In this document: positions 1 through 38,634 of the stretch, piece after piece | How the letters are laid out: the number at the start of each line of letters is the position of its first letter | Numbering within the stretch: the stretch's first letter is position 1 | DNA from: Blastocystis sp. Blastoise | Taxonomy: Eukaryota; Protista; Bigyra: Opalinata | NCBI GenBank assembly: GCA_039096225.1 | Contig: JBBPEB010000005.1 | Span: 992,001-1,056,000 of the forward strand | Direction: 5' to 3' | Length of the DNA stretch: 64,000 nt | Notes under the pieces: model-generated | The model's database searches: none | The model's input: the letters and a program-made list of their open reading frames with translations, nothing else | What the model was told of the DNA's origin: nothing | Translations under genes and position numbers: made by a program

Positions 1-705
1 ACTATACCTACATGTATTCAAGTTGATTATCAAAATACAAGATTAACTACTAATCATTTCAATATCAATAGAGCTTTACCATTTATACCTGAATATATAT
101 TATTTTGGTTTACAAATGGTTATAGTTCAACAACTATTAGTAATATAGCTAGTCCAAATGTATGGCCAACATATCAAAGTTGTTTGATTGGTGATGTTCA
201 AATGTTCCCTCAAACTGAATTCCCTACTCAAATGTATTATCATAATCTTACTACAAAAGGTCATGTCTTCAATAATGCAGAAACTACTAGTTTATCTTGT
301 CCTAATAAGAATTTATATTGTTTATGGGCTGATAATTCAAATCCTGAAACTATTCTTAAATATGATGAATGGATTAAACATCCTATTTATATTATTCCAA
401 CAAAATCATTAATGAATATCCAATCAGATAGTGGTATTGAATTGAATTTCGATTGTAATGTTGATGTTCATGATGTTAAATATGAACATATTGATTCATC
501 CACTGTTCCTGATGGACAAACGTGTCAATGGAAAAGTTACGTTGATCCAACAGATAAAAAGACAAAATATCATTGGGAAGCTGATACTGCCTCTTATAAG
601 GTAGCTTCTCATGCTGGTATTTATAAACATACTACTACTGATCTAAGTGATAGTTCTCCTTATACCTTACATATGATTGCTGTACGTAGTGTACGTGATA
701 TTTAA
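1..705 (+). CDS. Major capsid protein-like paralog 1 (C-terminal part; 5' end outside window)
   Basis: Frame is open from base 1 (TIPTCIQ...NRALPFIPEYILFWFTN...IGDVQMFPQTEFPT...LYCLWADNSNP...WIKHPIYIIP...SGIELNF...YTLH...VRD). It is collinear with the C-terminal half of ORF 885-2108. Confidence 0.7.
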   Translation, partial: TIPTCIQVDYQNTRLTTNHFNINRALPFIPEYILFWFTNGYSSTTISNIASPNVWPTYQSCLIGDVQMFPQTEFPTQMYYHNLTTKGHVFNNAETTSLSCPNKNLYCLWADNSNPETILKYDEWIKHPIYIIPTKSLMNIQSDSGIELNFDCNVDVHDVKYEHIDSSTVPDGQTCQWKSYVDPTDKKTKYHWEADTASYKVASHAGIYKHTTTDLSDSSPYTLHMIAVRSVRDI

Positions 706-884
706 ATTTAATATTTCTTACTTACTATTCTTAACGTTAACTTGTTTAATTAATTCTATTCTATTCTATAATACAATCATTTGTTTTGTTATAAAAATTA
801 AAATTAATTAATAATTATAAAATATTATTATTTTTTTTATTTTTTATTTTGTTAAAAAGAAATATATAAACAATAATTATTAAC

Positions 885-2108
885 ATGGAAGGATTCCCAA
901 GACAATTCTTACCTTCAAAGGCAAATCAAACTATTAAACCTGTACAAATTCCTATTCTAGTTTCTACAAGTCAGGATTTATTAAATCAACCTTATCCATT
1001 TGAATTCTTATATAATTCAGTGGATAGCCCTTATATTGATTTCAGTAATTCATTCTTAGAACTGAATTTCAATATTACTGGTACTAGAGACAAAAATTCA
1101 ACATCTTCAGTTGTACAACATTCTAATATCTATAGTATTATTGATAAGATTACTACAGATCTTACATTTGTATCTCCGACGGGTCAAGATATTCTTATTA
1201 ATTATTCTGAATCTTCTATTGAATCCAGTAAAGCAAGAAAATTTGTTACTATTAAAGAATTAAGTAAAGATGAAATTGATAAATCTATGTATAGTATGAC
1301 AGAATGCTTATATAATAACACGTTGAGTAGTATTGCTGGAATGGAAATGAAAGAAAAAGCTCAAGTTATTATTCCTTTATCTCTTATTACTGGTCTTGGT
1401 ACATTTGATTGTGCTATTAAAGTAAAATCTTTGAAGATGCAATTCGTTACAAATTATTTAAAGAATCTATTTACCGGTACCACTGTAATCACTGCATTGA
1501 AATTTGATCGTGTTTATATTCATCTTCAACAAATCTATGATATTAATTTTGGTAATGATCCACGTGCTTTGATTAAATGTATTCCTAATAATTGTCAGAT
1601 ATCTGCATTCACTACACCTGTTTATTCACAAGCATCAGTATCAGGTACACCAACTCCACAACAATTCTTATCCAATAGAAGTGTTGTTTTCGTTCCTGAT
1701 TATTGTATGTTATACTTCACAAATCAAGAGAAGAGCATGATTCCTATTAAAACTGAATTATTAAAATCATGTCAATTCCAAATTGGTGGTCAAAATATCT
1801 TACCAAAGACGGATTTCCCTACTACGTATAAAACAACGAATCCATCACAAATTATTCCTAATGCTATGCTTTATAATACTTGGAGATGTAATAGTCATCC
1901 TCAATCTCCTTTAAACGGTGAAAAGTGGTATGAACAACCTATTTATATATTCCCTATTTCAAGTGTTGTTGATGTCAATACGCGTAGTGGTTGTGAAGTT
2001 AATATCTCATTATTAACTGAATATACTGGTGGAACTGTTACTGGTTCTTATACTTTATATGCTCATTTTATATTTGTTAAATTTGTTAGAGATGGTGCTA
2101 CCAATTAA
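885..2108 (+). CDS. Double jelly-roll major capsid protein-like (Polinton/PLV type), 407 aa
   Basis: Size and beta-rich pattern. Polinton-MCP-like motifs YIDFSNSFLELNFNI, SNIYSIIDKI, VIIPLSLITG, P-DYCMLYF, IGGQNILP and PIYIFP. Adjacent to a penton-like gene and the ATPase. Confidence 0.75.
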   Translation: MEGFPRQFLPSKANQTIKPVQIPILVSTSQDLLNQPYPFEFLYNSVDSPYIDFSNSFLELNFNITGTRDKNSTSSVVQHSNIYSIIDKITTDLTFVSPTGQDILINYSESSIESSKARKFVTIKELSKDEIDKSMYSMTECLYNNTLSSIAGMEMKEKAQVIIPLSLITGLGTFDCAIKVKSLKMQFVTNYLKNLFTGTTVITALKFDRVYIHLQQIYDINFGNDPRALIKCIPNNCQISAFTTPVYSQASVSGTPTPQQFLSNRSVVFVPDYCMLYFTNQEKSMIPIKTELLKSCQFQIGGQNILPKTDFPTTYKTTNPSQIIPNAMLYNTWRCNSHPQSPLNGEKWYEQPIYIFPISSVVDVNTRSGCEVNISLLTEYTGGTVTGSYTLYAHFIFVKFVRDGATN

Positions 2109-2208
2109 TTTATTTATTTGATATTTTTATTATTTGTATCAACTTTATATTATTCTAAAAAAAAATATTGTTTTGTTTATAATTTCATAATTAATTCATT
2201 TAATAAAA

Positions 2209-2880
2209 ATGACATCAATATCTCATCTAAGTAAAATTACAAGTCAAATCTGTCATGAACAATTCAATTATACACTTGATCTAGTGGGTAAAAATATAAC
2301 TCATATCAATACATTAGTGAATACAAGTGATATCATCAATATTCCAGAATTCAATATTGAATTTTATGAAAATGCTGGTAGATTTACATTTCCAGCTGGA
2401 AATTATACTTTAGAAGTTTTTTTAGATCAATTATATGAAATTGGGAAAAAAATGAAATCCTATGTTGAAGGAGAACCTTATGGTTTCAGTTATAATAAAG
2501 AAACTAAAACTTTTAAATCAAATCATTATTTTGAATGTGGTCGTAGTGCTGGACTATTTAAATACTTAGGCATCAAATCAGTATACTTTTCACCGGGTGA
2601 TACAATCGTATTTACTGATGAATATATATCCAAGAATATATCATGGTATAAGATCTATATGTTACGTGTATATTGTGATATTATTAATAAAGATAATGAT
2701 TTGATTTCTATTCCTTTATATGCTAAACAAGGATTTGATAATACATTTGCTTTAAGTGATTTATCTATTCCATGTATTGATGGTAAATATACAGATATCC
2801 AATGGGAAGTATATGATCAATTAAATAATCCAATTGATTTATCAAATACAAATCTTTATATATACTTTACAGCATCTTAA
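2209..2880 (+). CDS. Minor capsid (penton) protein-like, 223 aa
   Basis: Motifs FPAGNYTL, LFKYLGI, LRVYCDII and IQWEVYDQLNNPIDL...IYF match the pattern of Polinton/PLV single-jelly-roll minor capsid proteins. Located between the MCP and the ATPase. Confidence 0.75.
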   Translation: MTSISHLSKITSQICHEQFNYTLDLVGKNITHINTLVNTSDIINIPEFNIEFYENAGRFTFPAGNYTLEVFLDQLYEIGKKMKSYVEGEPYGFSYNKETKTFKSNHYFECGRSAGLFKYLGIKSVYFSPGDTIVFTDEYISKNISWYKIYMLRVYCDIINKDNDLISIPLYAKQGFDNTFALSDLSIPCIDGKYTDIQWEVYDQLNNPIDLSNTNLYIYFTAS

Positions 2881-2950
2881 TAAAATCATTTATTTATCAT
2901 TAACTTATCATTAATTATTTTTTTTGTTTTGTTGATAAAAATCATATAAA

Positions 2951-3988
2951 ATGGTGAATAAAATAAATCCATTAAAAGAAACACGTAAAGGATGTGGAGT
3001 TTTAGAATTCAAATATGGAAAATCACATCATAAAACATATGAATCAAAATTTATATTGATTATTGCAAGAACATTCTCAGGTAAATCTTTCTTAACTGTG
3101 AACCTCTTATGTTCTATGGATCTTAAAAATAAATATAAACAAGTCACAGTAATTTGTCCTGATGCATCCAATAAGAATGAATGTTATACATCCTTTCAAG
3201 ATATTTGTGAACATGCTGGAATTGATTATAAATGGTATGATTCTGTAGATGATAAATTTAAAAAGATTAAAACTGTTGATGAATTAGTCAATACATATAA
3301 ATTACCAGAACATAATTTTATTGTATTGGATGATATCTATCCATTATCTAGACAAACCAAACAATTGATTGTATCTATATTATCTAAAGGTCGTCATTAT
3401 AAACAGAATGCTATTATATGTCTTCAAAGTCATACAGATGTTACCAATCAATCTATATTAAGTCAAGTATCTCATTTCTTTATTAATAGTCAAATCTTAA
3501 AACGTGATCCTGGATTCTTACCAGATAAATTAAAGATTATGCCATCAAATCTAAATGAAATTCTTACAGATGAAGAATTAATGAATGATCCACATCAATT
3601 CTTTATGTTAAAACAAGGTAGTGATGATTTAACGATATGGACTAATCCTGATTGTGGTAGTAAACAGAATGTATATAAGATGGTAAAGAAAAGGAAATGG
3701 ACAGAAGAAGATAGTGAAAAAGAGAAACGAGAAGAACAAGGTGAAGTATCAGGTAGTGGATTGAAACGTCCTAATGAACATATATCTACATATGAAAAGA
3801 AAATGAAGAAGTTTTTACCTGTTGAAGAAGAAGTCTCATTGAAAGGTATTGAACGAGATGAAAAAGATAAACCTAAAGAATCCATCTTACAAATCATACA
3901 AGATCAAATCATACAAGATAGTCAACGACGCATTTTCAATCCTTATTTAAATAAAAAGCATTATTCTGGTTATCCATCTTTTCATTAA
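2951..3988 (+). CDS. A32/FtsK-HerA family viral genome-packaging ATPase
   Basis: Walker A variant ILIIARTFSGKS, Walker B FIVLDD, and the A32-type arginine-finger/Q motif SKGRHYKQNAIICLQ. Confidence 0.9.
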   Translation: MVNKINPLKETRKGCGVLEFKYGKSHHKTYESKFILIIARTFSGKSFLTVNLLCSMDLKNKYKQVTVICPDASNKNECYTSFQDICEHAGIDYKWYDSVDDKFKKIKTVDELVNTYKLPEHNFIVLDDIYPLSRQTKQLIVSILSKGRHYKQNAIICLQSHTDVTNQSILSQVSHFFINSQILKRDPGFLPDKLKIMPSNLNEILTDEELMNDPHQFFMLKQGSDDLTIWTNPDCGSKQNVYKMVKKRKWTEEDSEKEKREEQGEVSGSGLKRPNEHISTYEKKMKKFLPVEEEVSLKGIERDEKDKPKESILQIIQDQIIQDSQRRIFNPYLNKKHYSGYPSFH

Positions 3989-4040
3989 TTTTTTATATTT
4001 TAATTTATTATATAAACCATAATTATTTTATTGTTTTGTT

Positions 4041-5066
4041 ATGAGTTCAATTACAAAAAGATATTTAAAACAAAATTGTGATCCACGATTATTTGGAGGA
4101 TCACCACCAAAATCAAATAGACGTGATCTTTATCATAAACGTTATGTAAGATATGGAGGAACTGGATTTGAAGAAATTGTTAGACAACAAACTAGAGATG
4201 CTGATTGGGCTGATTTTAAAAATGGTGTCTATACTGCATTACCTATTTTAGGTACATTAGGAGCATTTGCTGGATATAATTATTATCAGAAACGTAAAGA
4301 ACAAAAACGTCAAGAAAAAGCAAAAGAAGAAAAGAAAAGACAATTTGAAGAACATATTGAAGATGCTAATAGAGATGATGAATTATATAATGATGATGCT
4401 ACTTATCAACCAAAGAGAATAACAAGAAAAATGATGGCTGATGATGATAAAGATTTTGATGATAATGTTGTTGATGAAGATGATTATGGTCAAGGTACCC
4501 ATAGAAGGCATCAGAAACATCGTAAAGAACATGGGAGTCACCGAGAAAAAGAAAAGAAAACAAGTAAATTCGTTACTCCTCAAATAAGAATTATTGCTAA
4601 GAAGTCTATTCGTTCTAGTAATGTAAAATCTAATAAGAAGAAATTACAAGATATTAAAGAACGATTACCTAAAAATGATGAGCATGTGTCTGTACGTGAT
4701 ATTGTTAATGTTGTTATCGATAAAGAATATCCTATGGATCCAAAACAAAAGCATTCTATTATTGCGAATACTGCTATTAAAACTATTAAAACGATTGTTC
4801 CTATTGTAGTGAATGCATTAAAATACTATTATCCTTCTCTTGGTATCCCTATTGATTTCGCTTATAATATGATTACTACTGATGATGATAAGAAACGTAA
4901 AGAAACTGCTGATAACTATTTTAAAAATCCTAGTGGAAGTGGTGTTACAAAAGAGAATGCTGAACGTTGTGGTGGTGCTCTTGTCAACTCTACATCCTTT
5001 GATACTACTACTAATTTAATTATTAATCTTGTTCAATTCTTCTTAAAAAAATTTCATTTAAATTAA
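4041..5066 (+). CDS. Putative virion core protein precursor
   Basis: Intact 341-aa ORF with LFGG, RYGG, YGQG, SGSG and RCGG motifs, a hydrophobic segment (ALPILGTLGAFAGYNYY), and alternating acidic and basic blocks. Function is inferred from context. Confidence 0.55.
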   Translation: MSSITKRYLKQNCDPRLFGGSPPKSNRRDLYHKRYVRYGGTGFEEIVRQQTRDADWADFKNGVYTALPILGTLGAFAGYNYYQKRKEQKRQEKAKEEKKRQFEEHIEDANRDDELYNDDATYQPKRITRKMMADDDKDFDDNVVDEDDYGQGTHRRHQKHRKEHGSHREKEKKTSKFVTPQIRIIAKKSIRSSNVKSNKKKLQDIKERLPKNDEHVSVRDIVNVVIDKEYPMDPKQKHSIIANTAIKTIKTIVPIVVNALKYYYPSLGIPIDFAYNMITTDDDKKRKETADNYFKNPSGSGVTKENAERCGGALVNSTSFDTTTNLIINLVQFFLKKFHLN

Positions 5067-5142
5067 TTATTTTAACTTTTATTATTTCATAATTAATTAT
5101 TTGTTTTGTTATATAATTATTTTTAAATTAATACAATAAATA

Positions 5143-6321
5143 ATGCAAAGTAATTTAGGAGATAGTGTAACTCTCTATGATATTTTATCAAGAAATCAGA
5201 AAAAACAATCTTGGGATCCATGGTTACCGAATTCATATATTTGTCAAGATGAACAACCTGTACAACCTTTAGCACATGATCCTAATGCACAAGGATCTAT
5301 GTATAGCTCAATGGCAGTTCAAGCATTGAGAAATCATGGTCAATCAACTGAAGATATGTTTATAGCTACTATGAATTCAGCTAAAGCTAATGGAGATACT
5401 GCAAGATACTCATCTATGTTATCTCAATGGCAAACTAATTATGGTGTACCTACTACCAGTAAGATATGGTATGATGCTAGTAATCCTAATAATTATCAAT
5501 ATGAAACGTTATTATCTTCAATAAAAGGCTTAAATGGATTGAATTCAGAAGCATATAAACAGAATAAAGAGAATTATGAATTCTATTCAAATGCTCAAAA
5601 AGATATGTATGATCAATTAAACAATATTTCATATCAAATTAAAACAAATAATGATGACATTCATGCTGAAGCAGCATCAATGAAACAAAATATGACTAAT
5701 AATTATGAAAATCTACATAAAGATAACGAATATTTGAACTCAAAGATGGATACAAATGAAAATAATCGTCAATCAGATAATAATATTACAAACTCTAAAA
5801 TGGATACATATGAAAATAATCGTAAAAAAGATGTTAACAATACAAATTCGAAGATGGATAAATATGAAAATAATCGTCATCAAGACTACAACAATACACA
5901 ATCTAGAATGGATAAATATGAAAAGAATCGTCAAAATGATACTAATAAAACAAACGCTAAGATGGATGAATATGAAAGTAACCGTAAAAAAGATGCCAAA
6001 GCATTTGAAGATAAGATGGATGAACAAGGTATGCATTATGATATTGTTGAAAGTGGCATACCATTCACAATTTATGTTAATGGTAAGAACTCAAAAGTAA
6101 TATGTAATCAGCCAGAGTTTAAGGATCAGGTATTCCTTCTTAAAGATGAAAAGATTTATGTCAGATCAGCTGAAAAGTCAGGTTATATATATAAAAAGTA
6201 CGGAACAATGCCACTTGATGAATTCATTAGCAAATATAATGAAGGCTTATTTAATGAAAATAAGGCACTTCCTGATAAAGAACATAGTGGATTAAGAAAT
6301 CATCAAAACGATGAAACTTAA
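5143..6321 (+). CDS. Viral protein with 18-aa tandem repeat coiled coil (fibre/spike candidate)
   Basis: 392-aa ORF. Five full copies plus a partial copy of SKMDxYExNRxxDxNxTN at 54-bp spacing (5740, 5794, 5848, 5902, 5956, 6010). Confidence 0.6.
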   Translation: MQSNLGDSVTLYDILSRNQKKQSWDPWLPNSYICQDEQPVQPLAHDPNAQGSMYSSMAVQALRNHGQSTEDMFIATMNSAKANGDTARYSSMLSQWQTNYGVPTTSKIWYDASNPNNYQYETLLSSIKGLNGLNSEAYKQNKENYEFYSNAQKDMYDQLNNISYQIKTNNDDIHAEAASMKQNMTNNYENLHKDNEYLNSKMDTNENNRQSDNNITNSKMDTYENNRKKDVNNTNSKMDKYENNRHQDYNNTQSRMDKYEKNRQNDTNKTNAKMDEYESNRKKDAKAFEDKMDEQGMHYDIVESGIPFTIYVNGKNSKVICNQPEFKDQVFLLKDEKIYVRSAEKSGYIYKKYGTMPLDEFISKYNEGLFNENKALPDKEHSGLRNHQNDET

Positions 6322-6443
6322 TAGACTATATTATATTTACTTATTTATGCAATATTATGTTTGCCATTTAAGTTATAATTTTGTTAATATATATTTATTT
6401 TTTTGTTTTGTTTTAAAATTCATAATTATTTTATTAAACTAAA

Positions 6444-7934
6444 ATGATACAAAGTGCTCGTTTAAATGTTTCAAATAAAGGATTAGTAGGCGTAAATCAT
6501 CGTGCTACTGGTCATGAATATCGAAATTATATTGTTCCAGGATCTATTCCTGATGGAGAAGAACGTTATCCAATTAATTATTCTATTGCTCCAAATTCAT
6601 TATATGCTGTTAAGAAAATTGAAAGTAATATGGTCAATAGAGCAACATCCAATCCATTTTTCTCCTATTTATCAGAAACCAGACAAGATATTATACAAAG
6701 TTCCTTAGAAGAATCAGAAGAAAGTGAACCAATAGATGAAGGATCTGGGTTATTACCTGATGGTAGAATTCCGAAGAATTTCACAAGAAAACTCATTTAT
6801 GCTCATGATTATGTCTTACCTTATATGAAACAAAATCATATGTCTGATTATGCTAAATATTCTAGATTATTAAATCCTCGTACAATTGATAGTGCAATTG
6901 ATTTTACTAAAAGAGATCGTGATGGTTATTTATATTCTAGAGGTGGTAATTTATTTTCTAATATTTATCACACTGTGAGTGATGTATATAATGTGTCTGA
7001 TAAATTAACTGGAGGTATTAATAACATCACTCATGGAATAAGTAATGCTGTTGATTATGGTGCAAATAAATTCAAAGATCTCAAGAATTGGTGGAGAGAT
7101 ATTAATGTTGATCCACAAGAAGGATTCAATGATATTAAAGGAAAACTTGTAAGTGATAGAAACAATTTATATGATAATTGGAAATTAACTGATGATAATG
7201 AAGCTAAGAAAAATAATAAAATATTAGCTGATAACTATTTCAGATTTGCTCATATGTCAGGTAATGATACTAAAGAACAAAGACTTAACAAAAAGGTATC
7301 TTTAGATAATCAAGCAACAACATTTCATAAAAATTATATTCCATATGCAGAAAACCCAACATTTGTTAATAAAGTTGTTAATACTGCAACAAATGTATCA
7401 AAACCTGTGTATAATGGCGTTAAGAAAGTTGCAAACTCTATTGTTAGTGGTACAAAGAACGCGTTTAATAGTTTTTCTAATTGGTGGTATGGTAAAAATC
7501 CAGAGGAAGAAATACCACAAACAGAAAATCCAATAGAAACAAATAATAATGTTATACCAACTTCTTCATCTACCCCTGATACTCTAACTCTAGAAAATAT
7601 TCATAATATTACCATAGAAGATTCAAATCCTCCAAATTTAATTCCTCTTATGAATGATCCTACTGTTCCTTTACCTGATACTGTTCCAATGTCTCAAGCA
7701 ATAACGAATAAATTCACTCCAAATATTACACCTGTAGCCCCGATTCCTAATCCAGTAGAAAATGTCACTCTTGAAAATAATAATAAACGAAATAAAAAAG
7801 AAGATGATGAATTTCAATCATTTGATGAAGATGATGGTGAGGTATTTTATGATCTCGAAGAAGGTAATGGATTACGTAGAAAAAGACGTATTTCAAAAAA
7901 TAAAAAATTAAGAAATAAACGTAGAAAACATTAG
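6444..7934 (+). CDS. Putative virion core / membrane-penetration precursor (adenovirus pVI-like organisation)
   Basis: 496 aa. EGSG, SRGG and LTGG motifs followed by amphipathic helices ending in NWW, a Pro-rich region, an acidic patch, and a C-terminal EGNG-LRRKRR basic tail. Confidence 0.55.
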   Translation: MIQSARLNVSNKGLVGVNHRATGHEYRNYIVPGSIPDGEERYPINYSIAPNSLYAVKKIESNMVNRATSNPFFSYLSETRQDIIQSSLEESEESEPIDEGSGLLPDGRIPKNFTRKLIYAHDYVLPYMKQNHMSDYAKYSRLLNPRTIDSAIDFTKRDRDGYLYSRGGNLFSNIYHTVSDVYNVSDKLTGGINNITHGISNAVDYGANKFKDLKNWWRDINVDPQEGFNDIKGKLVSDRNNLYDNWKLTDDNEAKKNNKILADNYFRFAHMSGNDTKEQRLNKKVSLDNQATTFHKNYIPYAENPTFVNKVVNTATNVSKPVYNGVKKVANSIVSGTKNAFNSFSNWWYGKNPEEEIPQTENPIETNNNVIPTSSSTPDTLTLENIHNITIEDSNPPNLIPLMNDPTVPLPDTVPMSQAITNKFTPNITPVAPIPNPVENVTLENNNKRNKKEDDEFQSFDEDDGEVFYDLEEGNGLRRKRRISKNKKLRNKRRKH

Positions 7935-7983
7935 TTAATTTTATTTTGTTTTATTTATTATTATTTTTAAAAACTAAACAATT

Positions 7984-7992
7984 TGTTTTGTT
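7984..7992 (+). terminator. TGTTTTGTT putative polyadenylation-associated motif (one of many copies)
   Basis: The same 9-mer occurs 36-83 nt after each of the seven viral + strand stop codons, and also after host and hAT genes (e.g. 25268, 40622, 41660). Confidence 0.6.
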
Positions 7993-8008
7993 ATTTATAA
8001 AAATTAAT

Positions 8009-8176
8009 TTAAAAATCAATAAAATTCTTGATATAATCTTCGTAATCATCCTCACTTTCAGTTTGAATAGTATCCATTTCAGAATCACTATCACTTAATT
8101 CATCAACTTCAAAGTTTCCATAAGGTTTCCAAGTACCTTGTTTATAATCTGGAGCAAATTGCTTTGGAGAATTCAT
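8009..8176 (-). CDS. Small acidic protein, 55 aa (below ORF-track cutoff)
   Basis: MNSPKQFAPDYKQGTWKPYGNFEVDELSDSDSEMDTIQTESEDDYEDYIKNFIDF*. Coding-like composition between AT-rich spacers, convergent with the structural genes. Confidence 0.65.
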   Translation of the reverse strand: MNSPKQFAPDYKQGTWKPYGNFEVDELSDSDSEMDTIQTESEDDYEDYIKNFIDF

Positions 8177-8221
8177 AATAAATAGTATAAAAATAGAAAA
8201 AATTCACAATACAATTTTATT

Positions 8222-8251
8222 GTTCTAGAATGTTCTAGAATGTTCTCGAAA
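8222..8251. promoter_or_regulatory. Perfect heat-shock-element-like array (six alternating nTTCn/nGAAn pentamers)
   Basis: gTTCt aGAAt gTTCt aGAAt gTTCt cGAAa, 46-75 bp upstream of the ATG at 8176. Confidence 0.55.
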
Positions 8252-8852
8252 ATTTTTAGTTTTCCATATCGGTCGGTCATGTTTCCAAAAGTCTCTCGTT
8301 ATAGTCGTGGTGGTGGGTACATCTTTTTACAAGACCACACCACCACCAGCTTTTCTTTCACCCACTATAAATACATACCTTGATCACTTTACTCTTTTTA
8401 TATAATTTTTTTATGATTATCATGACTTTTTATATTATTTATTGATCACTATACATACATTTTTATTTTTATATATTCCCGTGATTATTTTTATTATTTC
8501 TTTTTAGATAGAACCATCCATTTCATCTTTTCTCTATATAAAGGGAGGGTCGGGGTGTGTGTTTATTTAGCACATTCTGTGCTTCTTTTCGTATTTCTTT
8601 CTGTATTCCCGTGATTATTTTACTCACTTTACCAACGATGGAGTCATTTTCCATGAATATTCCCTGTAAAGGGGAGGGTTGGACTGTGTATTTTATTTCT
8701 TTTATGATTACTATGAGTTTCTCCTTGATCACTTTACGTTTCACGTTGGAATCGGAACACAAATAAATTAAAAATAAATAAACATGGGAAAAAATAAATA
8801 CACACACACACTACCCTACACTCCCATGGTTATTTTACTTCAGAAATGTTAT

Positions 8853-8997
8853 TAATTCTTCCGTCGAGAACAAAAAGGGGGGATGACTTCCCCGCTTATG
8901 GCTGCGCGCGTCGCGCAGACTCTATGCGGGGTTTGCATACCCCCTTCTGCAGTTCGAAGAACGGAAGAATTATTAGTTTAACGAATCAACTAATACT
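8853..8997. other. GC-rich imperfect palindrome plus small hairpin at the putative element terminus
   Basis: Stems 8853-8864/8961-8972 (12 bp perfect), 8875-8885/8936-8946, 8890-8895/8926-8931 and 8902-8908/8912-8918. Second hairpin 8971-8978/8988-8995. Confidence 0.7.
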
Positions 8998-10331
8998 ATA
9001 TAAACAATAAATAGAATGAATATATAAAATATAAAAAAAACTATAAGAATAAATATATATTTCTACTAATAAATACTATAAGACCTATATATACAAAACT
9101 ATAGATAAAAGTAAATAATTAAATTAAAAATAAATAATTATATAAAACAATACTATTTAATATATATCTGAATTAAATATATCAAATAAATTAAATAAAA
9201 TAACATAAAAATAATAATAATAAAAATATTTATATATACCTAAAAAATGAAAAGGAAGAATTTTCTTTTTTAATTAAACCACTTTTTCAAGATTCGGTAA
9301 CTACCCTAGAGTAATATAGATAGTGAATAAAGTAAAATAAATAAAAGAATAAATAAAAATAAATATATACAGAAATGAATGTCTCCCATTCTCTCACTTT
9401 TGTTTTGATTTGAATTTATTTTGATTTAAAATCGTCAACCATTAGTACATAAGTGATTTGAAGAATCTCATTCAATTACAACCTAAATAAATAAAATAGA
9501 AATTAGACAAAATTATTATATTTTATATTTATATACTTTTGAAGAGACCTGTGTGACTAAAGTGAAGGCTTGAAACTGTTAGTGACACCTATAAGTTCTA
9601 AAAATAAATAAACGATAACATAATTACTGATTAAGTATTTGTATATAAAATAATTATAAAATATTTACTAGTATAAAGGTTCACAGACTTCCTGAGATAG
9701 TTGATGCTCGAAAATAAATGAAAAGCAATCAACAAAGCTGGATAAGCTTAAAAATAAATTTTTGATTTTTTAAAGAAATAAATTTTTTTTATACATTTTT
9801 TCTTTTGTTAGTTAAAGACTTTTTTTCGACCGATTTTTTTCTTTTTTTGTCTTAAACTGAACTCAAACCCTAACCCTAACCCTAGACAAGAAAAATGGTC
9901 CACCAGTGACAATTTTCTGACATTCATAAGAATGGCAACTTTATCATAATTCACATTCAATTCTATGTTCTTTCGAGTCTGTGAATTCGTTAGTATACGT
10001 GAATAATTCAATTAAGTAAATTGCCGAACAAAATTAAAAATGATTGTCCTAGATATTGTGGATAATTTCTTGAATATGTTATAGAAAGTCTTAAATTATC
10101 AGTTAATATACAAATAAAACATCTTACTATCAGTTTCTTAGATATAAATATATAAATATAAAACAACGAATTTATATGAGTGTCCACACAACATTATACC
10201 AAGTTTATTTTTGTTTTTGTGGTATAAATTACTTTCGTCGGTATAAAAAAAATTAAAGACCGATTTTTTCGTAATTTTGGTATAAATTTATGGGGAACCT
10301 GGTATAAAAGGGAAAAAGCTGCCCACCAGTG

Positions 10332-11898
10332 TATACTTTTTTATTAGTAAATAATATTTAAAATAATTAATAAGAAATAATGTCCCAAAATACTGATGGA
10401 CAACAACCAAACACTCAGACAACTTCAGAAACGTATAACTATTTATATATACCCTAATATATATAGTAATATATATAATTAGTATTATAGATATAACAAA
10501 TAGAACAATATAAAAAAAATTAAACGTGACATATATAATAAACATATATTATATTATATATCTAGTCTACTAAAGACTCTTGCTCTTATTTCTGTCATTA
10601 CACGACTAATACACTTTCTAATAGTACCACTATCAATAGACTTCCATTCATCACTTATTCTTTGTATAAAATCATCAATTCCATTCCATCTTGTTATGTT
10701 TCTTTCAGCATTTCCTTTCCATATACTGAATACATTTTCTATCGGGTTCATATCAGGACTATAAGGAGGACCATATATTACTGGGATCTCAAATTCATTA
10801 CATATATCATTTATAAGGCCTTTTTGGTGTACCGGCGCATTATCCATATATAAGCAAATATTCATATCATCTTCAGTATAATGAGTTAGTGCAGCACGTA
10901 GAAAATTACCAAAAACAGCTCCAGTAACAGAATTACTAAATAATTCTGTGTATCCAGCTCCAGTATTACTGATGGTTGCAATTGCTGTAAGAGATAATCT
11001 TTTTGATAAATGATGATAATATATTTTCTCACCTACTTTACCCCATCCATACTGCGAGAAATTGTTAAAAGACCAGTGCACTTCATCTAAATAAATTATT
11101 CTTTTACCTTCATGTATCATATTATCTATTTCATTGTATACTTCTATTCTTCTTGTTTTGTTATCATCATTATTTGAATTTTGACCACGTTTATAAAGCT
11201 TTTTGACATTAAAAGATGCACCAACATGTTCAGCCATACGACTACTATGTAGATGTTTTGCTACAGTGGCTTTAGAACAAAAAGAAGTTGTATTACTTTC
11301 TTTCAACGATTTCAATTCTTCTTCAGCTTGTATTCTTACATCTTCAGGTACATCATAAGTTTCAGTCACCCTTTCGAAGATTGAATTAGTAGAAGTATCA
11401 GATAATACTAAGACAGCATCATTGAGAGTTAATTTTGGATTTATAATGAACATATTCTTCAGTTTTTTGGACATATTAGGTGTAATAATAGCATGCCTAC
11501 CACTCTTTCTACGTTCTTTTATTAAAGGAGTATTGTTTACTAACTTTCTTACATATCGTTTAACTATATCTAGCTTTATATCTAACTGGAGTGAATAATC
11601 TTCTGGTGTCCATCGAACACCGTGAATTGACCACAAGTCCATTAATCGTTGTTTTTCAGAATCAGGTATCTTAGTATTCTTTCTTTTCCCAGTCTCAGTA
11701 GCCAGAAACGAATCATGATCACGTTGATTAATTAAGGAAATACGAGACGAGCGTCTTGCATTACTATATATATTAGGGTATATATAAATAGTTATACGTT
11801 TCTGAAGTTGTCTGAGTGTTTGGTTGTTGTCCATCAGTATTCTGGGACATTATTTCTTATTAATTATTTTAAATATTATTTACTAATAAAAAAGTATA
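10332..11898 (-). mobile_element. Tc1/IS630-family DNA transposon with 139-bp inverted repeats
   Basis: 10332-10470 is the reverse complement of 11760-11898 (one mismatch seen). Both outer ends are TA, consistent with a TA target duplication. The repeats enclose a DDE transposase. Confidence 0.75.
10554..11850 (-). CDS. DD34E transposase (IS630/Tc1, DDE_3)
   Basis: IIYLDE, LYMDNAPVH and PPYSPDMNPIENVFS; 34 residues between the second D and the E. Probable start at 11850 with a 34-nt GT-AG intron at 11764-11797 (alternative unspliced start at 11834). Confidence 0.9.
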
Positions 11899-18545: not shown

Positions 18546-20520
18546 TAGAGCGGTTCAAAAGTTGCAACAAGTTGCGACAAGTTGTGATAGTATTTAAAAA
18601 CATTTTTTCCTTGATAAATAAAACAAATTTTTAATAAAGAAAACATAAATAAAACATAAAAATACAAATTATGAATTAATTAAGAAAAAATATTAATCAA
18701 GATTAATCTCTGAAACATTACTAAAAGTAGATAAATTATCAAAAAGTTGAAAAAAAAATCATCAAGAGAATCAGATAAAAGACTATTTGAATTGAAATTT
18801 CTATCATAAACATCAGTTTCATGTTCATTTGATAATATTTCATTATCATCTATAATTGTTATTGAAGAATCATTAATTGTAGTATCTATTTCATCTTCAA
18901 TAATCATTGAATCATTTTGAATTGAAATAGTATCTATTTGTGGATTCATATAGAAAAATAAATCTCTGAACAAATTTTCATCAGAATAACCAAATTTCTT
19001 CTTTGTAAATAAAATATTCATAAAAGAGAAAGATCTTTCTACACTAACAGTAGTAGAAGGTAATTGAAGAATGAAAGTAATTATTTTAGAAATAGAAGGA
19101 ATTTGTTTAAGAATAGGAAAATATAATTTTATCATTTGTTCTTTACTTATCATATTTTGAGGAAAACATTCATTTTATTTCTTCTCATTATCTATAAAAT
19201 CTTTCAATTTTGAAACACATAATAAATAATCTTTCTTTTCTATATCTAAAAATTCAGATGAAGTGAAAGAAGGAAATGAAGAAGACATCAAGAAAGGATT
19301 TTCATTATAAAATATCATTTGTTTCTTATTCATTGTTTTGATTTCTTTCAATTTTAATAATGTATTCGTAAAACATATATAATATAAAATAATAATAAAT
19401 AATAAATATACTTTTCTTATATTCTTGAATAAATGAAGATTGAACATTTGATAAATTATTTTCTTCACATATTTCATTCACTATCATAATTATATTATCT
19501 TTTGAATTCTTCAATTCTTCTTCAATTTCATCTATCAAACTAGAAACATTACAACATTGAAAATTATCATTGGATAATAATTTTAATATTTCTTCAAACA
19601 TTATTCCACTCTTCAAGAGAATCGATATTTTGATTTGTAAAGAAGAAGATAATTGATTATCTTGAAGAATATTCAATATTTCTTTATCTTTTTCACTTAA
19701 CATATCCAATGTTTCTAAATATTCATAGAATGATTTCAAATATTTAAAATGTTTCAAAATATATCTTAATGATTTATACCAAGATATCCATCGTGTTTCT
19801 TTAAATAAGAAAAGAAAGAAGACGAAGGAAGATTATTTATCTTTAAAAAGGATAACCATATATCATTTTTCTTTCTAAAGAAACGAAATGATGAATTAAT
19901 GAGATTAATAAATGATTTAGTATTAATAAAACCATCTTTTAGTTTCTCAGCTACTAAATTAATCATATGCATAAAACATCCACAATAAATTCCATCACTA
20001 AAAATCGATTCATAATTATTACCAGCATTTCGCATAGTATTACAGTTATCAGTGTGAAACGATTTGAATTGTTTTCTTTTAATGTTCCATTCTTCTAATG
20101 TATCTTGAATGATAGAAAGAAAAATATTAGATTTTTGATTTTCCATTCGTTTCAAGTTTATTAAGTAGAAAGGTTCATTCAAATTGAAAGAATTCAATCT
20201 TCTTACGATTATTGATAAATAATTAGAACCAGCATCTGAGGTAGAAGAATCACATAGAACAGCTAGAGAACATTTATCTAAACTCATTTTTACATATTGA
20301 ATACGTTCATCATACAATTTAGGTATAATTCGTTTTTGAATAGTATTATAACATGGCATATTATTATTATTCATTTCAAATATATTTTTCAATTTCATTC
20401 TAAATTGAGGTTTCTTGAATTTATTAATAGGAATACATTCTTCTAAAAATAATTCTATTAATTTTTCAAATCTTAAATAATTCACATTAGATTCAATAAT
20501 TCTATTGTTATTATTATTAG
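18546..20520 (-). mobile_element. hAT transposon, 5'-truncated copy B
   Basis: TIR TAGAGCGGTTCAAAAGTTGC at 18546. Transposase fragments on the - strand are near-identical to copy A. Cut off at 20520 by another TIR. Confidence 0.85.
18680..20510 (-). pseudogene. hAT transposase, truncated/disrupted
   Basis: Motifs AVLCDSST, FHTDN, CFMHMINL (CxxH), TRW (in a shifted frame) and LPSTTVSVERSFS. Frameshift and in-frame stop; lacks the N-terminal zinc finger. Confidence 0.85.
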
Positions 20521-20918
20521 TAGAGCGGTTCAAAAGTTGCGATAAAAGTTGTGACAAGTTGCGACAAAAGTTGCGACAAAGTTGCGACAAGTTGTGACAA
20601 GTTGCGACACTTTTTATATCTCATTTGTGAGCCATATATTTATTATATAATAAATTTATATATATAATTATAGAGAGATTTACATGATGATTACATAAAT
20701 AATTTTTAAATAAATTAAAAATAAGTTTAATACTCTTAATAAGCGTTTTAAACACTAAAAATTGAATTTTTAAAGTCAAAATTATTCTATAAATATCGTT
20801 ATTTTAATCATTTTAACAATCTTTTAACGATTTTTAAAATATTATATTATTTTTATATTATAAGAATAATGTTATTAAATATAAAAAGTGAAAAATTGCA
20901 TGTCATAGATAGAGCGGT
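20521..20918 (-). mobile_element. Inverted right end of the non-autonomous hAT derivative
   Basis: Reverse complement of ~23533-23918, beginning with the TIR and AAGTTGCGAC subterminal repeats and ending in a 9-bp TIR stub. Confidence 0.8.
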
Positions 20919-21510
20919 TAGAGCGGTTCAAAAGTTGCGACAAATTTCACAACTTGTCGCAACTTGTCGCAATTTGTCGCAACTTTTTTAATCATGAATA
21001 ATGGCGAGAGTCCCGTAATTATTTTATTAATTTGGCAATTAAAAAAGACTTGTTTAAAAAAAGAATTCAGTGTCGCAATTTGTCACAACTTTGTCACAAC
21101 TTTTCATTTAAACATATATAGACCTATTTTACATTTATATAAAATATGATAATTTATGAAATTCATAGTGGTGAATATAATAAGCATCAAGAATTATTTA
21201 AATACTTAATTCAAACAAAGAAAAACATTAAAAATACTTTTCAAAAAATCATGAATATTTTTTTTACAGTCAAAAAAATGAAATATTCACGGGACATTAT
21301 TAATTTTCAGTCATTTTAAAATGTATAAATAATTGAAAGAAATCATCTCATTTTCATTAATTTATATTTCTATATAAATCGTTCTTTCAATATAGATTCA
21401 TTCATCTATTCATAAAGTCTTCTTTAATACTCATTTCTATCAATAAAATATCATTCTAAGAATCAAAAGAAGTATATATATGTATTCATCATTCTTAATT
21501 ATCTTTAGAT

Positions 21511-24500
21511 ATGGTTAAAAAAACAATGAAACAATCTAATAATCATAAAGTGAAAAGAAAAGAAAAGAAGAAGTCTTCATCTACTAAGAAAAGTGAGAAT
21601 GTTAGAACGAGAATCTACAAAATGAATCCAATAAGTCGTTTAACAAAAATAAAATTATCATCCAGTATGAATGAAGAAGAAAAGAAATGTTTCATATCAA
21701 AGAATAATAATCTTCGTTGTATTTATTGTAATTGTATTGTAGATCATAAAAGATTATCTTCTATTAATAAACATCTCAATACTGATATGCATATTTCTAA
21801 TATGAATTCATTCATGAAAGAAAAGTCTGCTACTGTATCTTCTGTAAAGAAAACTAATACTAAAAATAGAATTATTGAATCTAATGTGAATTATATAAGA
21901 TTTGAAAAATTAATAGAATTATTTTTAGAAGAATGTATTCCTATTAATAAATTCAAGAAACCTCAATTTAGAATGAAATTGAAAAATATATTTGAAATGA
22001 ATAATAATAATATGCCATGTTATAATACTATTCAAAAACGAATTATACCTAAATTATATGATGAACGTATTCAATATGTAAAAATGAATTTAGATAAATG
22101 TTCTCTAGCTGTTCTATGTGATTCTTCTACCTCAGATGCTGGTTCTAATTATTTATCAATAATCGTAAGAAGATTGAATTCTTTCAATTTGAATGAACCT
22201 TTCTACTTAATAAACTTGAAACGAATGGAAAATCAAAAATCTAATAATTATCTTTCTATCATTCAAGATACATTAGAAGAATGGAATATTAGAAGAAAAC
22301 AGTTTAATCGTTTCATACAGATAACTGTAATACTATGCGAATAGAGCGGTTCAAAAGTTGCGACAAATCGAGTTGCGACAAATTTCACAACTTGTCGCAA
22401 CTTGTCGCAATTTGTCGCAACTTTTTTAACCATTAATAATGGCGAGAGTACCGCGATTATTTTATTAATTTGGCAATTAAAAAAGACTTGTTTAAAAAAT
22501 GAATTCAGTGTCGCAATTTGTCACAACTTTGTCACAACTTTTCATTTAAACATATATTCAATTAATATTTTATATAATAGAATATTTCATTATATAAATA
22601 AAGTAGTAACAAATATATATACCAAATTTCATTTTATAAAAATGAAAAGATCATATGAAATGAATTAGAGTAAGAATTCAAAATATTTTGAATAATTTTT
22701 TTACAGTCAAAAATTTGATTTATTTACGGGATAAAACCATTTTTGACTCATTTTTGAAATTACATTTTTTAATCAAAATTCAAATGAATTTCAATTTTAT
22801 TTTCTTTGCATTATTTATCCATTTTCAATTGAAATCATAGTTTGTATTATTTATAGCATTTAATAATGTGAATGATTTCATTAATACATTGATTTTAGAT
22901 CTTTTTGAAATGATTTATTTTTTATCAACTCATTTTATCATCTAATTAAGCATATTATATTTATAATTGACTATTAATTATCATATAGATACATATTTAT
23001 ATCATAATGATTCATTATATGATGTTTAATGAAGAATGTTAAAAATTGAATTTTGATGAAATTCAATAATTTGAATATATATGTATTCAATATCTTATTA
23101 AAGACTCATACGAAAGAAATGAATCAATTTTTTAAATATTATATGCTTAATGAGCTCATTTTGTCTTCAATGAAGCTTTTATGACATTCAATTCTTCACT
23201 TTTTATATTTAATAACATTATTTTGATAATATAAAAATAATATCATACTTTAAAAATCGTTAAAAGAATTAAAAAATGATTAAAATAAGTATATTTATCT
23301 AATGAATTTTTCTTATGAATTTCAAAAATTTCAATTTTTAGTGTTTAAAACGCTTATTTTGTGTATTAAACTTATTTTTAATTTATTTAAAAATTATTTA
23401 TGTAATCATCATGTAAATATCTTTATAATTATATATTTAAATATATTTTATAATAAATATATGACTTACAAATGAGATATAAAAAGTGTCACAACTGTCT
23501 TAACTTGTCGCAACTTTTCTCACAACTTTTGAACCGCTCTATCTATGACATTCAATTTTTCACTTTTTATATTTAATAACATTATTCTTATAATATAAAA
23601 ATAATATAATATTTTAAAAATCGTTAAAAGATTGTTAAAATGATTAAAATAACGATATTTATAGAATAAATTTGACTTTAAAAAATCAATTTTTAGTGTT
23701 TAAAACGCTTATTAAGAGTGTTAAACTTATTTTTAATTTATTTAAAAATTATTTATGTAATCATCATGTAAATCTCTCTATAATTATATATATAAATTTA
23801 TTATATAATAAATATATGGCTTACAAATGAGATATAAAAAGTGTCGCAACTTGTCGCAACTTGTCACAACTTTGTCGCAACTTGTCGCAACTTTTGTCGC
23901 AACTTTTGAACCGCTCTAATGCATATGATTAATTTAGTAGCTGAGAAACTAAAAGATGGTTTTATTAATACTAAATCATTTATTAATCTCATTAATTCAT
24001 CATTTCGTTTCTTTAGAAAGAAAAATGATTTATGGTTATCCTTTTTAAAGATAAATAATCTTCCTTCGTCTTCTTTCTTTTCTTATTTAAAGAAACACGA
24101 TGGATATCTTGGTATAAATCATTAAGATATATTTTGAAACATTTTAAATATTTGAAATCATTCTATGAATATTTAGAAACATTGGATATGTTAAGTGAAA
24201 AAGATAAAGAAATATTGAATATTCTTCAAGATAATCAATTATCTTCTTCTTTACAAATCAAAATATCGATTCTCTTGAAGAGTGGAATAATGTTTGAAGA
24301 AATATTAAAATTATTATCCAATGATAATTTTCAATGTTGTAATGTTTCTAGTTTGATAGATGAAATTGAAGAAGAATTGAAGAATTCAAAAGATAATATA
24401 ATTATGATAGTGAATGAAATATGTGAAGAAAATAATTTATCAAATGTTCAATCTTCATTTATTCAAGAATATAAGAAAAGTATATTTATTATTTATTATT

Positions 24501-25199
24501 ATTTTATATTATATATGTTTTACGAATACATTATTAAAATTGAAAGAAATCAAAACAATGAATAAGAAACAAATGATATTTTATAATGAAAATCCTTTCT
24601 TGATGTCTTCTTCATTTCCTTCTTTCACTTCATCTGAATTTTTAGATATAGAAAAGAAAGATTATTTATTATGTGTTTCAAAATTGAAAGATTTTATAGA
24701 TAATGAGAAGAAATAAAATGAATGTTTTCCTCAAAATATGATAAGTAAAGAACAAATGATAAAATTATATTTTCCTATTCTTAAACAAATTCCTTCTATT
24801 TCTAAAATAATTACTTTCATTCTTCAATTACCTTCTACTACTGTTAGTGTAGAAAGATATTTCTCTTTTATGAATATTTTATTTACAAAGAAGAAATTTG
24901 GTTATTCTGATGAAAATTTGTTTAGAGATTTATTTTTCTATATGAATTCACAAACAGATACTATTTCAATTCAAAATGATTCAATGATTATTGAAGATGA
25001 AATAGATACTACAATTAATGATTCTTCAATAACAATTATAGATGATAATGAAATATTATCAAATGAAAATGAAAATGAAGAAAAAAATACAAATTTCAAT
25101 TCAAATAGTGTTTTATCTGATTCTCTTGATGATATTTTATCAATTTCTTTTGATAATTTATCTACTTTCAGTAATGTTTCAGAGATCAATCTTGATTAA
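21511..25199 (+). pseudogene. hAT transposase (CGGBP1-like zinc finger), disrupted
   Basis: N-terminal CIYCNCIVDHKRLSSINKHLNTDMH finger, catalytic and dimerisation motifs. Interrupted at 22342-23918, with frameshifts and a stop at 24714. Confidence 0.85.
22342..23918 (+). mobile_element. Non-autonomous hAT derivative with one left end and two tandem right ends
   Basis: TIR at 22342 and reverse TIRs ending at 23541 and 23918. The ~350-bp right-end segment is duplicated. No coding capacity. Confidence 0.85.
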
Positions 25200-25449
25200 A
25201 TTTTTTCTTAATTAATTCATAATTTGTTTTTTTATATGTTTTATTTATGTTTTCTTTATTAAAAATTTGTTTTGTTTATCAAGGAAAAAATGTTTAAAAA
25301 GTGTCGCAACTTGTTGCAACTTTTGTCGCAATTTTTGTCACAACTTTTGAACCACTCTAATTTGGTTTAAACTAATGAAAATCTATTTCGTTATTTAATC
25401 TTTTATATTAATCTAAAAATATATAATATTGCTTGAAACTAATTCAATT

Positions 25450-34678: not shown

Positions 34679-38634
<3,956 letters not shown>

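Follow-up and report, generated by a model that had tools for sequence, protein, structure and literature searches.

A six-unit heat-shock-element-type array before a probable small acidic gene near the end of an integrated Polinton-like virus in Blastocystis sp. Blastoise

In the 64,000-nt stretch of Blastocystis sp. Blastoise DNA analysed here (the window), the first 8975 nt are the right part of an integrated Polinton-like virus, and a six-unit array of the heat-shock-element (HSE) type (8222-8251) lies directly before a small antisense ORF (8009-8176, minus strand) near the end of this element. We propose, from sequence features and with a probability of roughly 0.55, that the array is a promoter driven by the heat-shock factor (HSF) of the host and serving the small acidic viral protein that the ORF encodes. 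That this 55-aa protein then wakes the virus is a separate and speculative proposition, which we consider doubtful. The array is well placed, before a probable viral gene and in a host clade with HSF, and its function is a prediction.

The cores of the array span 8223-8250 (pentamers 8222-8251) and consist of three TTC and three GAA in perfect 5-bp alternation. An HSE has been defined as three or more contiguous alternating nGAAn pentamers (PMC12366260); this array has six. A four-unit pattern matched only twice in the 64-kb window, in overlapping positions that both fall within the array, and none of 100 dinucleotide shuffles equalled these two matches. Under an independent-base model, six units are expected about 2e-6 times per 64 kb, but this figure exaggerates the rarity of the array because a single 10-mer, repeated 2.6-fold in perfect tandem, makes up 26 nt of it. 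Slippage is therefore a fair null, and a random 10-mer has a chance of about 0.3% of fitting the array pattern in some rotation. HSF prefers units of the form AGAAn, which is found in five of the six units.

Furthermore, the array occupies a promoter position: the conserved small ORF, whose codon usage is gene-like, has its ATG 46 nt downstream of the nearest core and 74 nt downstream of the far end. The right end of the element (8975) is 725 nt away. The preliminary description, which had reported a perfect six-unit HSE in the subterminal region, about 46-75 bp upstream of a small ORF, is thus confirmed as far as sequence and position go. The leader between array and ATG (8177-8221, minus strand) is AT-rich and, judging from translated gene models, carries small indels between copies of the element. 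No TATAAA box was found in this 46-nt leader; in the hsp70-type layout, a TATA box lies downstream of the HSE array. In one gene model of another copy, the last exon begins right after the AG of the proximal array unit, which suggests that this unit has been kept in that copy. The visible 9 kb of the element contain no further array. Elsewhere in the window, three-unit HSE matches occur at 35268 and 56299, both within coding sequence of the host and at a frequency close to chance (mean 0.75 per shuffle).

The small ORF is probably a real, unannotated viral gene. On a codon log-odds score trained on the seven long ORFs of the element it reaches 0.47, versus 0.26 ± 0.13 for 43 windows of those seven genes, at most -0.02 for off-frame ATG ORFs of 40-120 codons (n = 22) and no match to its score in 2000 shuffles. 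It is intact, as the C-terminus, in all four other gene models that hold it (all from Blastocystis sp. Blastoise), with 90-95% identity and three to five mostly conservative, gapless substitutions in each, and the frame of the leader just upstream changes between copies. By locus tag, all four models adjoin a copy of the 496-aa gene that is the last plus-strand gene here (6444-7934), and the small ORF was seen only in that company; two more members of the cluster of one of these models are devoid of it. The four models look like gene predictions in which the element end has been spliced onto the small ORF, and they are no evidence of transcription. Thus, the 55-aa D/E-rich ORF of the preliminary description is there (27% D/E, pI 4.05) and conserved in other copies. 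Its designation as the only antisense gene stands for ORFs with gene-like codon usage among the 23 ATG ORFs of 40-120 codons in 1-9000, and does not extend to the left part of the element, which lies outside the window.

The exact sequence of the 55-aa protein is absent from a collection of 15 billion proteins, no proteins of 30-97 aa matched it, and Pfam, Atlas and phmmer gave no relative outside its own family. Seven phmmer matches comprised four members of that family and three further proteins (P0204-P0206), which were set aside as multi-stretch matches at 31-35%. Five S/T-x-x-D/E sites lie in an acidic tract of the protein, and its hydrophobic moment peaks in a C-terminal segment that is predicted to form an amphipathic helix. 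An activation-domain rule (a 39-aa tile with charge of -9 or below, at least seven W+F+Y+L residues and a position on or beyond the CITED2-VP16 line; PMC10550315) was passed by three of its 17 tiles, all on the boundary of a rule whose published precision on human factors is 0.18. None of the 2172 tiles from the other seven ORFs of the element passed. Among the other copies of the protein three of four passed, and P0199 failed (50 aa tested). An adaptor-type activator is the most likely role, if a weakly supported one, and calling the protein an 'immediate-early activator' would lean on a borderline predictor pass. Proteins that mimic DNA are folded scaffolds that display carboxylates in the manner of the DNA backbone, and we found no support for such a role here.

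The viral identity of the element, proposed earlier as a provirus, is borne out by its capsid. Seven co-oriented intronless ORFs occupy 1-7934, and the DNA that makes up the remainder of the window is eukaryotic, AT-rich and rich in introns; its low GC, long introns and low-complexity sequence match the tortoise clade as characterized in the available parts of PMC10690189. The ORF at 885-2108 (plus strand) has 87 matches including itself, most at about 60% identity and three named Blastocystis sp. Blastoise. Folded from an 83-row alignment (pLDDT 74, compared with 32 from the single sequence), it gives a predicted double-jelly-roll major capsid protein, matching the capsids of Sputnik (E 1.2e-10) and of 'MELD virus sp.' (E 2.2e-15, TM 0.68, the best BFVD match). 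A P-loop ATPase at 2951-3988 (plus strand) likely serves genome packaging (PHROG head-and-packaging, 1.9e-10, with weak Pfam P-loop matches). On this predicted capsid fold and packaging-type ATPase, the element is a Polinton-like virus. Six of its proteins sit in clusters of 4-18 members at 92-99.8% identity, in which every named member is from Blastocystis sp. Blastoise, and at least 15 near-identical copies of the virus carry that name; we conclude that this is a young multi-copy family. Related loci were not found with the ATPase in viral contigs, with the capsid alignment in viral or metagenome contigs, or with the capsid against GenBank phages.

No replication gene is present in the visible 9 kb. 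The annotation of Rus-B (Blastoise), as far as its published tables were available, counts no protein with the PolB domain IPR004868, none with the rve integrase domain IPR001584 and 36 of the tyrosine-recombinase superfamily (IPR013762), so the virus family more likely uses a tyrosine recombinase, whose gene would belong to the left part of the element, outside the window. The same strain also gave its name to three more distant capsid families (P0077, P0079 and P0080; 47-51% identity), and ENA and Logan contigs no longer than 27 kb contributed some 80 capsid relatives at close to 60% identity. Elsewhere in the element, 54-nt tandem repeats at 5635-5995 encode an 18-residue repeat in a 392-aa ORF, which may form a coiled-coil fibre. 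Consecutive tags (WA158_003931 and WA158_003932) on a pair of copies of the 496-aa gene suggest that two elements were inserted end to end.

Beyond the array, a non-coding subterminal region (8252-8849) with short direct repeats (8378/8723, 8472/8602 and 8540/8669) leads to the terminus (8850-8975), whose last 125 nt form a long hairpin (fold z -7.5). Three other gene models have the terminal sequence in common but part from it at about 8975, and this divergence led us to reject a Polinton-type end at 8998. Around one copy, model P0202 matches 8898-8975 in 26 of 26 residues and continues beyond the element end into the C-terminal portion of a hAT-type gene, and P0200 leads from the N-terminal portion of that gene into the opposite end of the element. 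As the two models share the terminal sequence at opposite ends, the element would have terminal inverted repeats of at least 78 bp, with 8898-8975 recurring inverted at the other end, and that copy would be integrated in the hAT-type gene. Locus tags would place about 14 annotated genes between the two ends. The terminal hairpin and the direct repeats are candidates for an origin or for recombinase sites; Rfam gave nothing at threshold in 8000-9100.

Other mobile elements lie nearby in the window. An intact 426-aa DDE_3 transposase ORF (10554-11834, minus strand) is contained in 10332-11898 and flanked by 139-nt inverted arms with 99% complementarity, the arm repeating the first codons of the gene. 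Similarly, 18680-25199 holds two inverted, partly broken hAT-like transposase copies with arms of 1220 and 453 nt and short tandem 10-mers.

A second short motif, TTGTTTTGTT, marks the spaces between the viral genes. Its plus-strand copies start at 781, 2168, 2924, 4031, 5101 and 6403, with a seventh and last at 7983-7992, such that it occurs in all seven plus-strand intergenic stretches and is absent from all 7,335 coding bases; none of 5,000 shuffles placed it in more than one intergenic stretch. One of the copies directly adjoins the following ATG and another comes after the last plus-strand gene, which favours a role at 3' ends, and we regard TTGTTTTGTT as the likely 3'-end signal of the element. 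Three copies sit 31-32 nt before an ATG, so the motif may also have a promoter role. On the minus strand, a one-mismatch copy lies about 27 nt past the stop of the small ORF, where it is weak support because there are five such minus-strand matches in 9.1 kb. We also weighed a two-mismatch copy in the leader as a possible promoter element but dropped it, as gene models from other copies of the virus imply that it is not retained there. The motif resembles TGTTTGTT, the poly(A) element of human Blastocystis (PMC5608401), which in the portion of PMC10690189 available is reported as not enriched in tortoise strains. A further exact copy at 25267 (plus strand) follows the stop of a hAT transposase by 67 nt, and none was found within 450 nt after the four host genes checked. 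It may be that mobile elements here use a 3' signal that the host's own genes lack.

The preliminary description had made its stress reading depend on the host encoding an HSF, and annotation agrees: two proteins with the HSF-type DNA-binding signature IPR000232 are listed for Rus-B, and two to three in each of the eight Blastocystis strains (PMC10690189, supplementary file 7, as available). Literature searches on Blastocystis HSF gave nothing useful.

How specific the array is for HSF was gauged against viral sequences. A loose six-unit pattern matched 68 loci in IMG/VR, 55 of them inside an ORF; six of eight such ORFs tested are phage replication initiators, from hosts that have no HSF, and a seventh initiator was found on retest. 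Because phage initiator genes carry it, the loose pattern alone is no proof of an HSE. At these seven loci (L004, L010, L018, L019, L022, L027 and L048), TTCnnGAA arrays with a 10-bp period mimic a perfect HSE, and we take them to be iterons. Six of them contain zero to two AGAAn units and the seventh contains four, against five here; among 30 distinct six-unit arrays in IMG/VR, only two reach five.

A strict five-unit pattern matched only 12 IMG/VR loci, namely six of CRESS-DNA viruses (five called by a Rep Pfam match and L073 by its likeness to L072), four of giant-virus type (three called by contig name and L079 by genes in common with L071) and two phage-like. Eukaryotic viruses thus account for 10 of the 12, loci that are not all independent and represent about eight independent lineages. 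IMG/VR is mostly phage, and the proportion is therefore an enrichment in viruses of eukaryotes. In five of the six CRESS loci the array lies 103-134 nt before the Rep ATG. In all, seven CRESS-DNA viruses were noted in which a five- or six-unit array precedes the Rep start by about 100-135 nt (L049:1484-1511, L064:998-1025, L072, L073, L075, L077 and L080); in L049 a TGACGTAA site precedes the array and a TATA-like box follows it. Two strict viral arrays (L070 and L076) are at gene 3' ends and are not promoters. As a positive control, we looked for heat-shock-protein families in the ORFs flanking the 80 listed metagenome loci with strict arrays and found none in 85 ORFs and then in 84 of 142 further ones, picked in a way that is crude for spliced genes; several of the neighbours look bacterial.

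The initiator arrays bear on a genuine alternative, in which one of the virus's own proteins (a replication initiator, a recombinase or an autoregulator) binds the array, which only resembles an HSE; the preliminary description had raised it for a viral replication protein. The palindromic 10-bp-period pattern inside phage initiator genes speaks for it, as do the position of the array beside a repeat-rich subterminal region, 725 nt from the terminus, and the fact that the replication genes of the element lie outside the window. Against it, the array is neither in nor beside a replication gene in the visible 9 kb. A second array is missing from the same 9 kb, the terminal hairpin and the direct repeats are better candidates for an origin or recombinase sites, and the tested phage arrays are poorer in AGAAn units. 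We judge a viral-protein site to be unlikely.

If the array is instead an HSF-driven promoter, we envisage the following sequence of events. Under host stress, the host HSF would bind the array, perhaps as two trimers bound cooperatively across the six units, and switch on the adjacent 55-aa gene. Host RNA polymerase II would be recruited and would transcribe inward from the right end of the element, the transcript likely ending at the one-mismatch TTGTTTTGTT copy past the small ORF stop. The 55-aa protein has no recognisable DNA-binding domain and so would most likely act through a protein partner, which its acidic tract and the aromatic helix at its C-terminus would bind, making it an activator or de-repressor of the adaptor type. 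This step, together with any link from it to excision or virion production, is the weakest part of the proposal.

The link to excision or virion production could be absent altogether. HSF might use the array only for a stress-coupled cargo gene, or to open the element end, while the virus as a whole responds to a different trigger, for instance a helper giant virus; the promoter reading is then the same and only the outcome differs. Such an outcome would suit a protein with no DNA-binding domain and with no homologue found, within the reach of the search, in the proteomes of about 80 more distant capsid relatives. It would also suit the known reactivation of integrated Polinton-like viruses and virophages, which needs a giant virus (bioRxiv 10.1101/2025.10.09.676808, in the parts available). 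However, the intronless viral genes appear to use a host-like 3' motif, also present after the hAT transposase, which fits nuclear transcription by the host, and one survey gave no gene-flux link between Blastocystis and gut egoviruses. We hold this alternative to be quite improbable. Least probable of all is that the array is a functionless, neutral 10-mer duplication in an AT-rich leader: slippage can make a perfect 26-nt tandem, other 10-mer tandems occur in the window and the adjoining leader tolerates indels, but so few 10-mers fit the pattern, the single mismatch falls on a free position and the array directly precedes a conserved gene.

Extended to its fullest form, the HSF-promoter reading would make this virus family a eukaryotic counterpart of an inducible prophage, in which HSF, and not a helper giant virus, fires a 55-aa trigger of the viral programme and of excision by a tyrosine recombinase. 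We put this forward tentatively and think it rather unlikely. If it were true, strong HSEs before CRESS Rep genes and near Polinton ends would reflect a stress switch that has arisen convergently and generally among small DNA viruses of eukaryotes. Integrated Polinton-like viruses are very numerous in protist genomes, and giant-virus infection is the only trigger shown to wake them in the literature as far as it was covered; an HSE before a conserved small gene would offer a trigger that is independent of a helper. Should the host be a tortoise-type Blastocystis, the gut of an ectotherm with daily swings in temperature would make a stress switch ecologically plausible.

Mobile elements driven by HSEs are already known, and none was found described among Polinton-like viruses in the searched literature outside subscription journals. 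For example, HSE-dependent heat induction has been reported for the LTR elements ONSEN of Arabidopsis and Mlig-id115/36/55/38 of Macrostomum lignano, in which four of six HSE-bearing families responded and two were not induced (PMC12801592, available sections). The present element resembles these in being mobile and in having alternating nGAAn units near its end, in a promoter position. However, they are retroelements in which the LTR promoter drives the whole element and induction was shown by experiment, whereas here a DNA virus carries an array that faces one small antisense gene and is known from sequence alone.

Among DNA viruses, the gamma-herpesviruses offer a regulatory parallel, a latent virus with an HSE before a regulatory gene: HSF2 has been found at the herpesvirus ORF50 and BZLF1 promoters (PMC12047821), and HSF control has been described for KSHV ORF50, EBV BZLF1 and the EBV EBNA-1 promoter (PMC12047821; PMC12366260). 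In the accessible parts of those accounts the elements have two or three units, with that of ORF50 some 550 nt away from the start site, and control genes for large regulators; the array described here has six units, all no more than 75 nt from the ATG, and the protein in question is only 55 aa long and has no DNA-binding domain.

In its gene content, the element resembles the MELD viruses of B. hominis (Starrett et al., PMC8502044) and protist Polinton-like viruses (Bellas et al., PMC10120064), with which it shares a double-jelly-roll capsid, a packaging-type ATPase, inferred terminal inverted repeats and many integrated copies, and with the former also a Blastocystis host. The available text of these two papers makes no mention of an HSE. 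The B. hominis MELD virus has PolB and an adintovirus-type integrase (PMC8502044), from which the present family likely differs, to judge from the Rus-B annotation. The phage replication-initiator arrays have the same TTCnnGAA units at a 10-bp period, but inside the initiator ORF and in an AGAAn-poor form. Finally, Mavirus/EMALE and the Tetraselmis Polinton-like viruses are likewise integrated, capsid-encoding protist elements that can be reactivated. They are woken by giant viruses, and induction of the Cafeteria provirophage is described, in the portions of that preprint available, as dependent on the giant virus and not on host stress (bioRxiv 10.1101/2025.10.09.676808). Their trigger is thus a helper virus together with its promoter motif, whereas the trigger proposed here would be a stress factor of the host itself.
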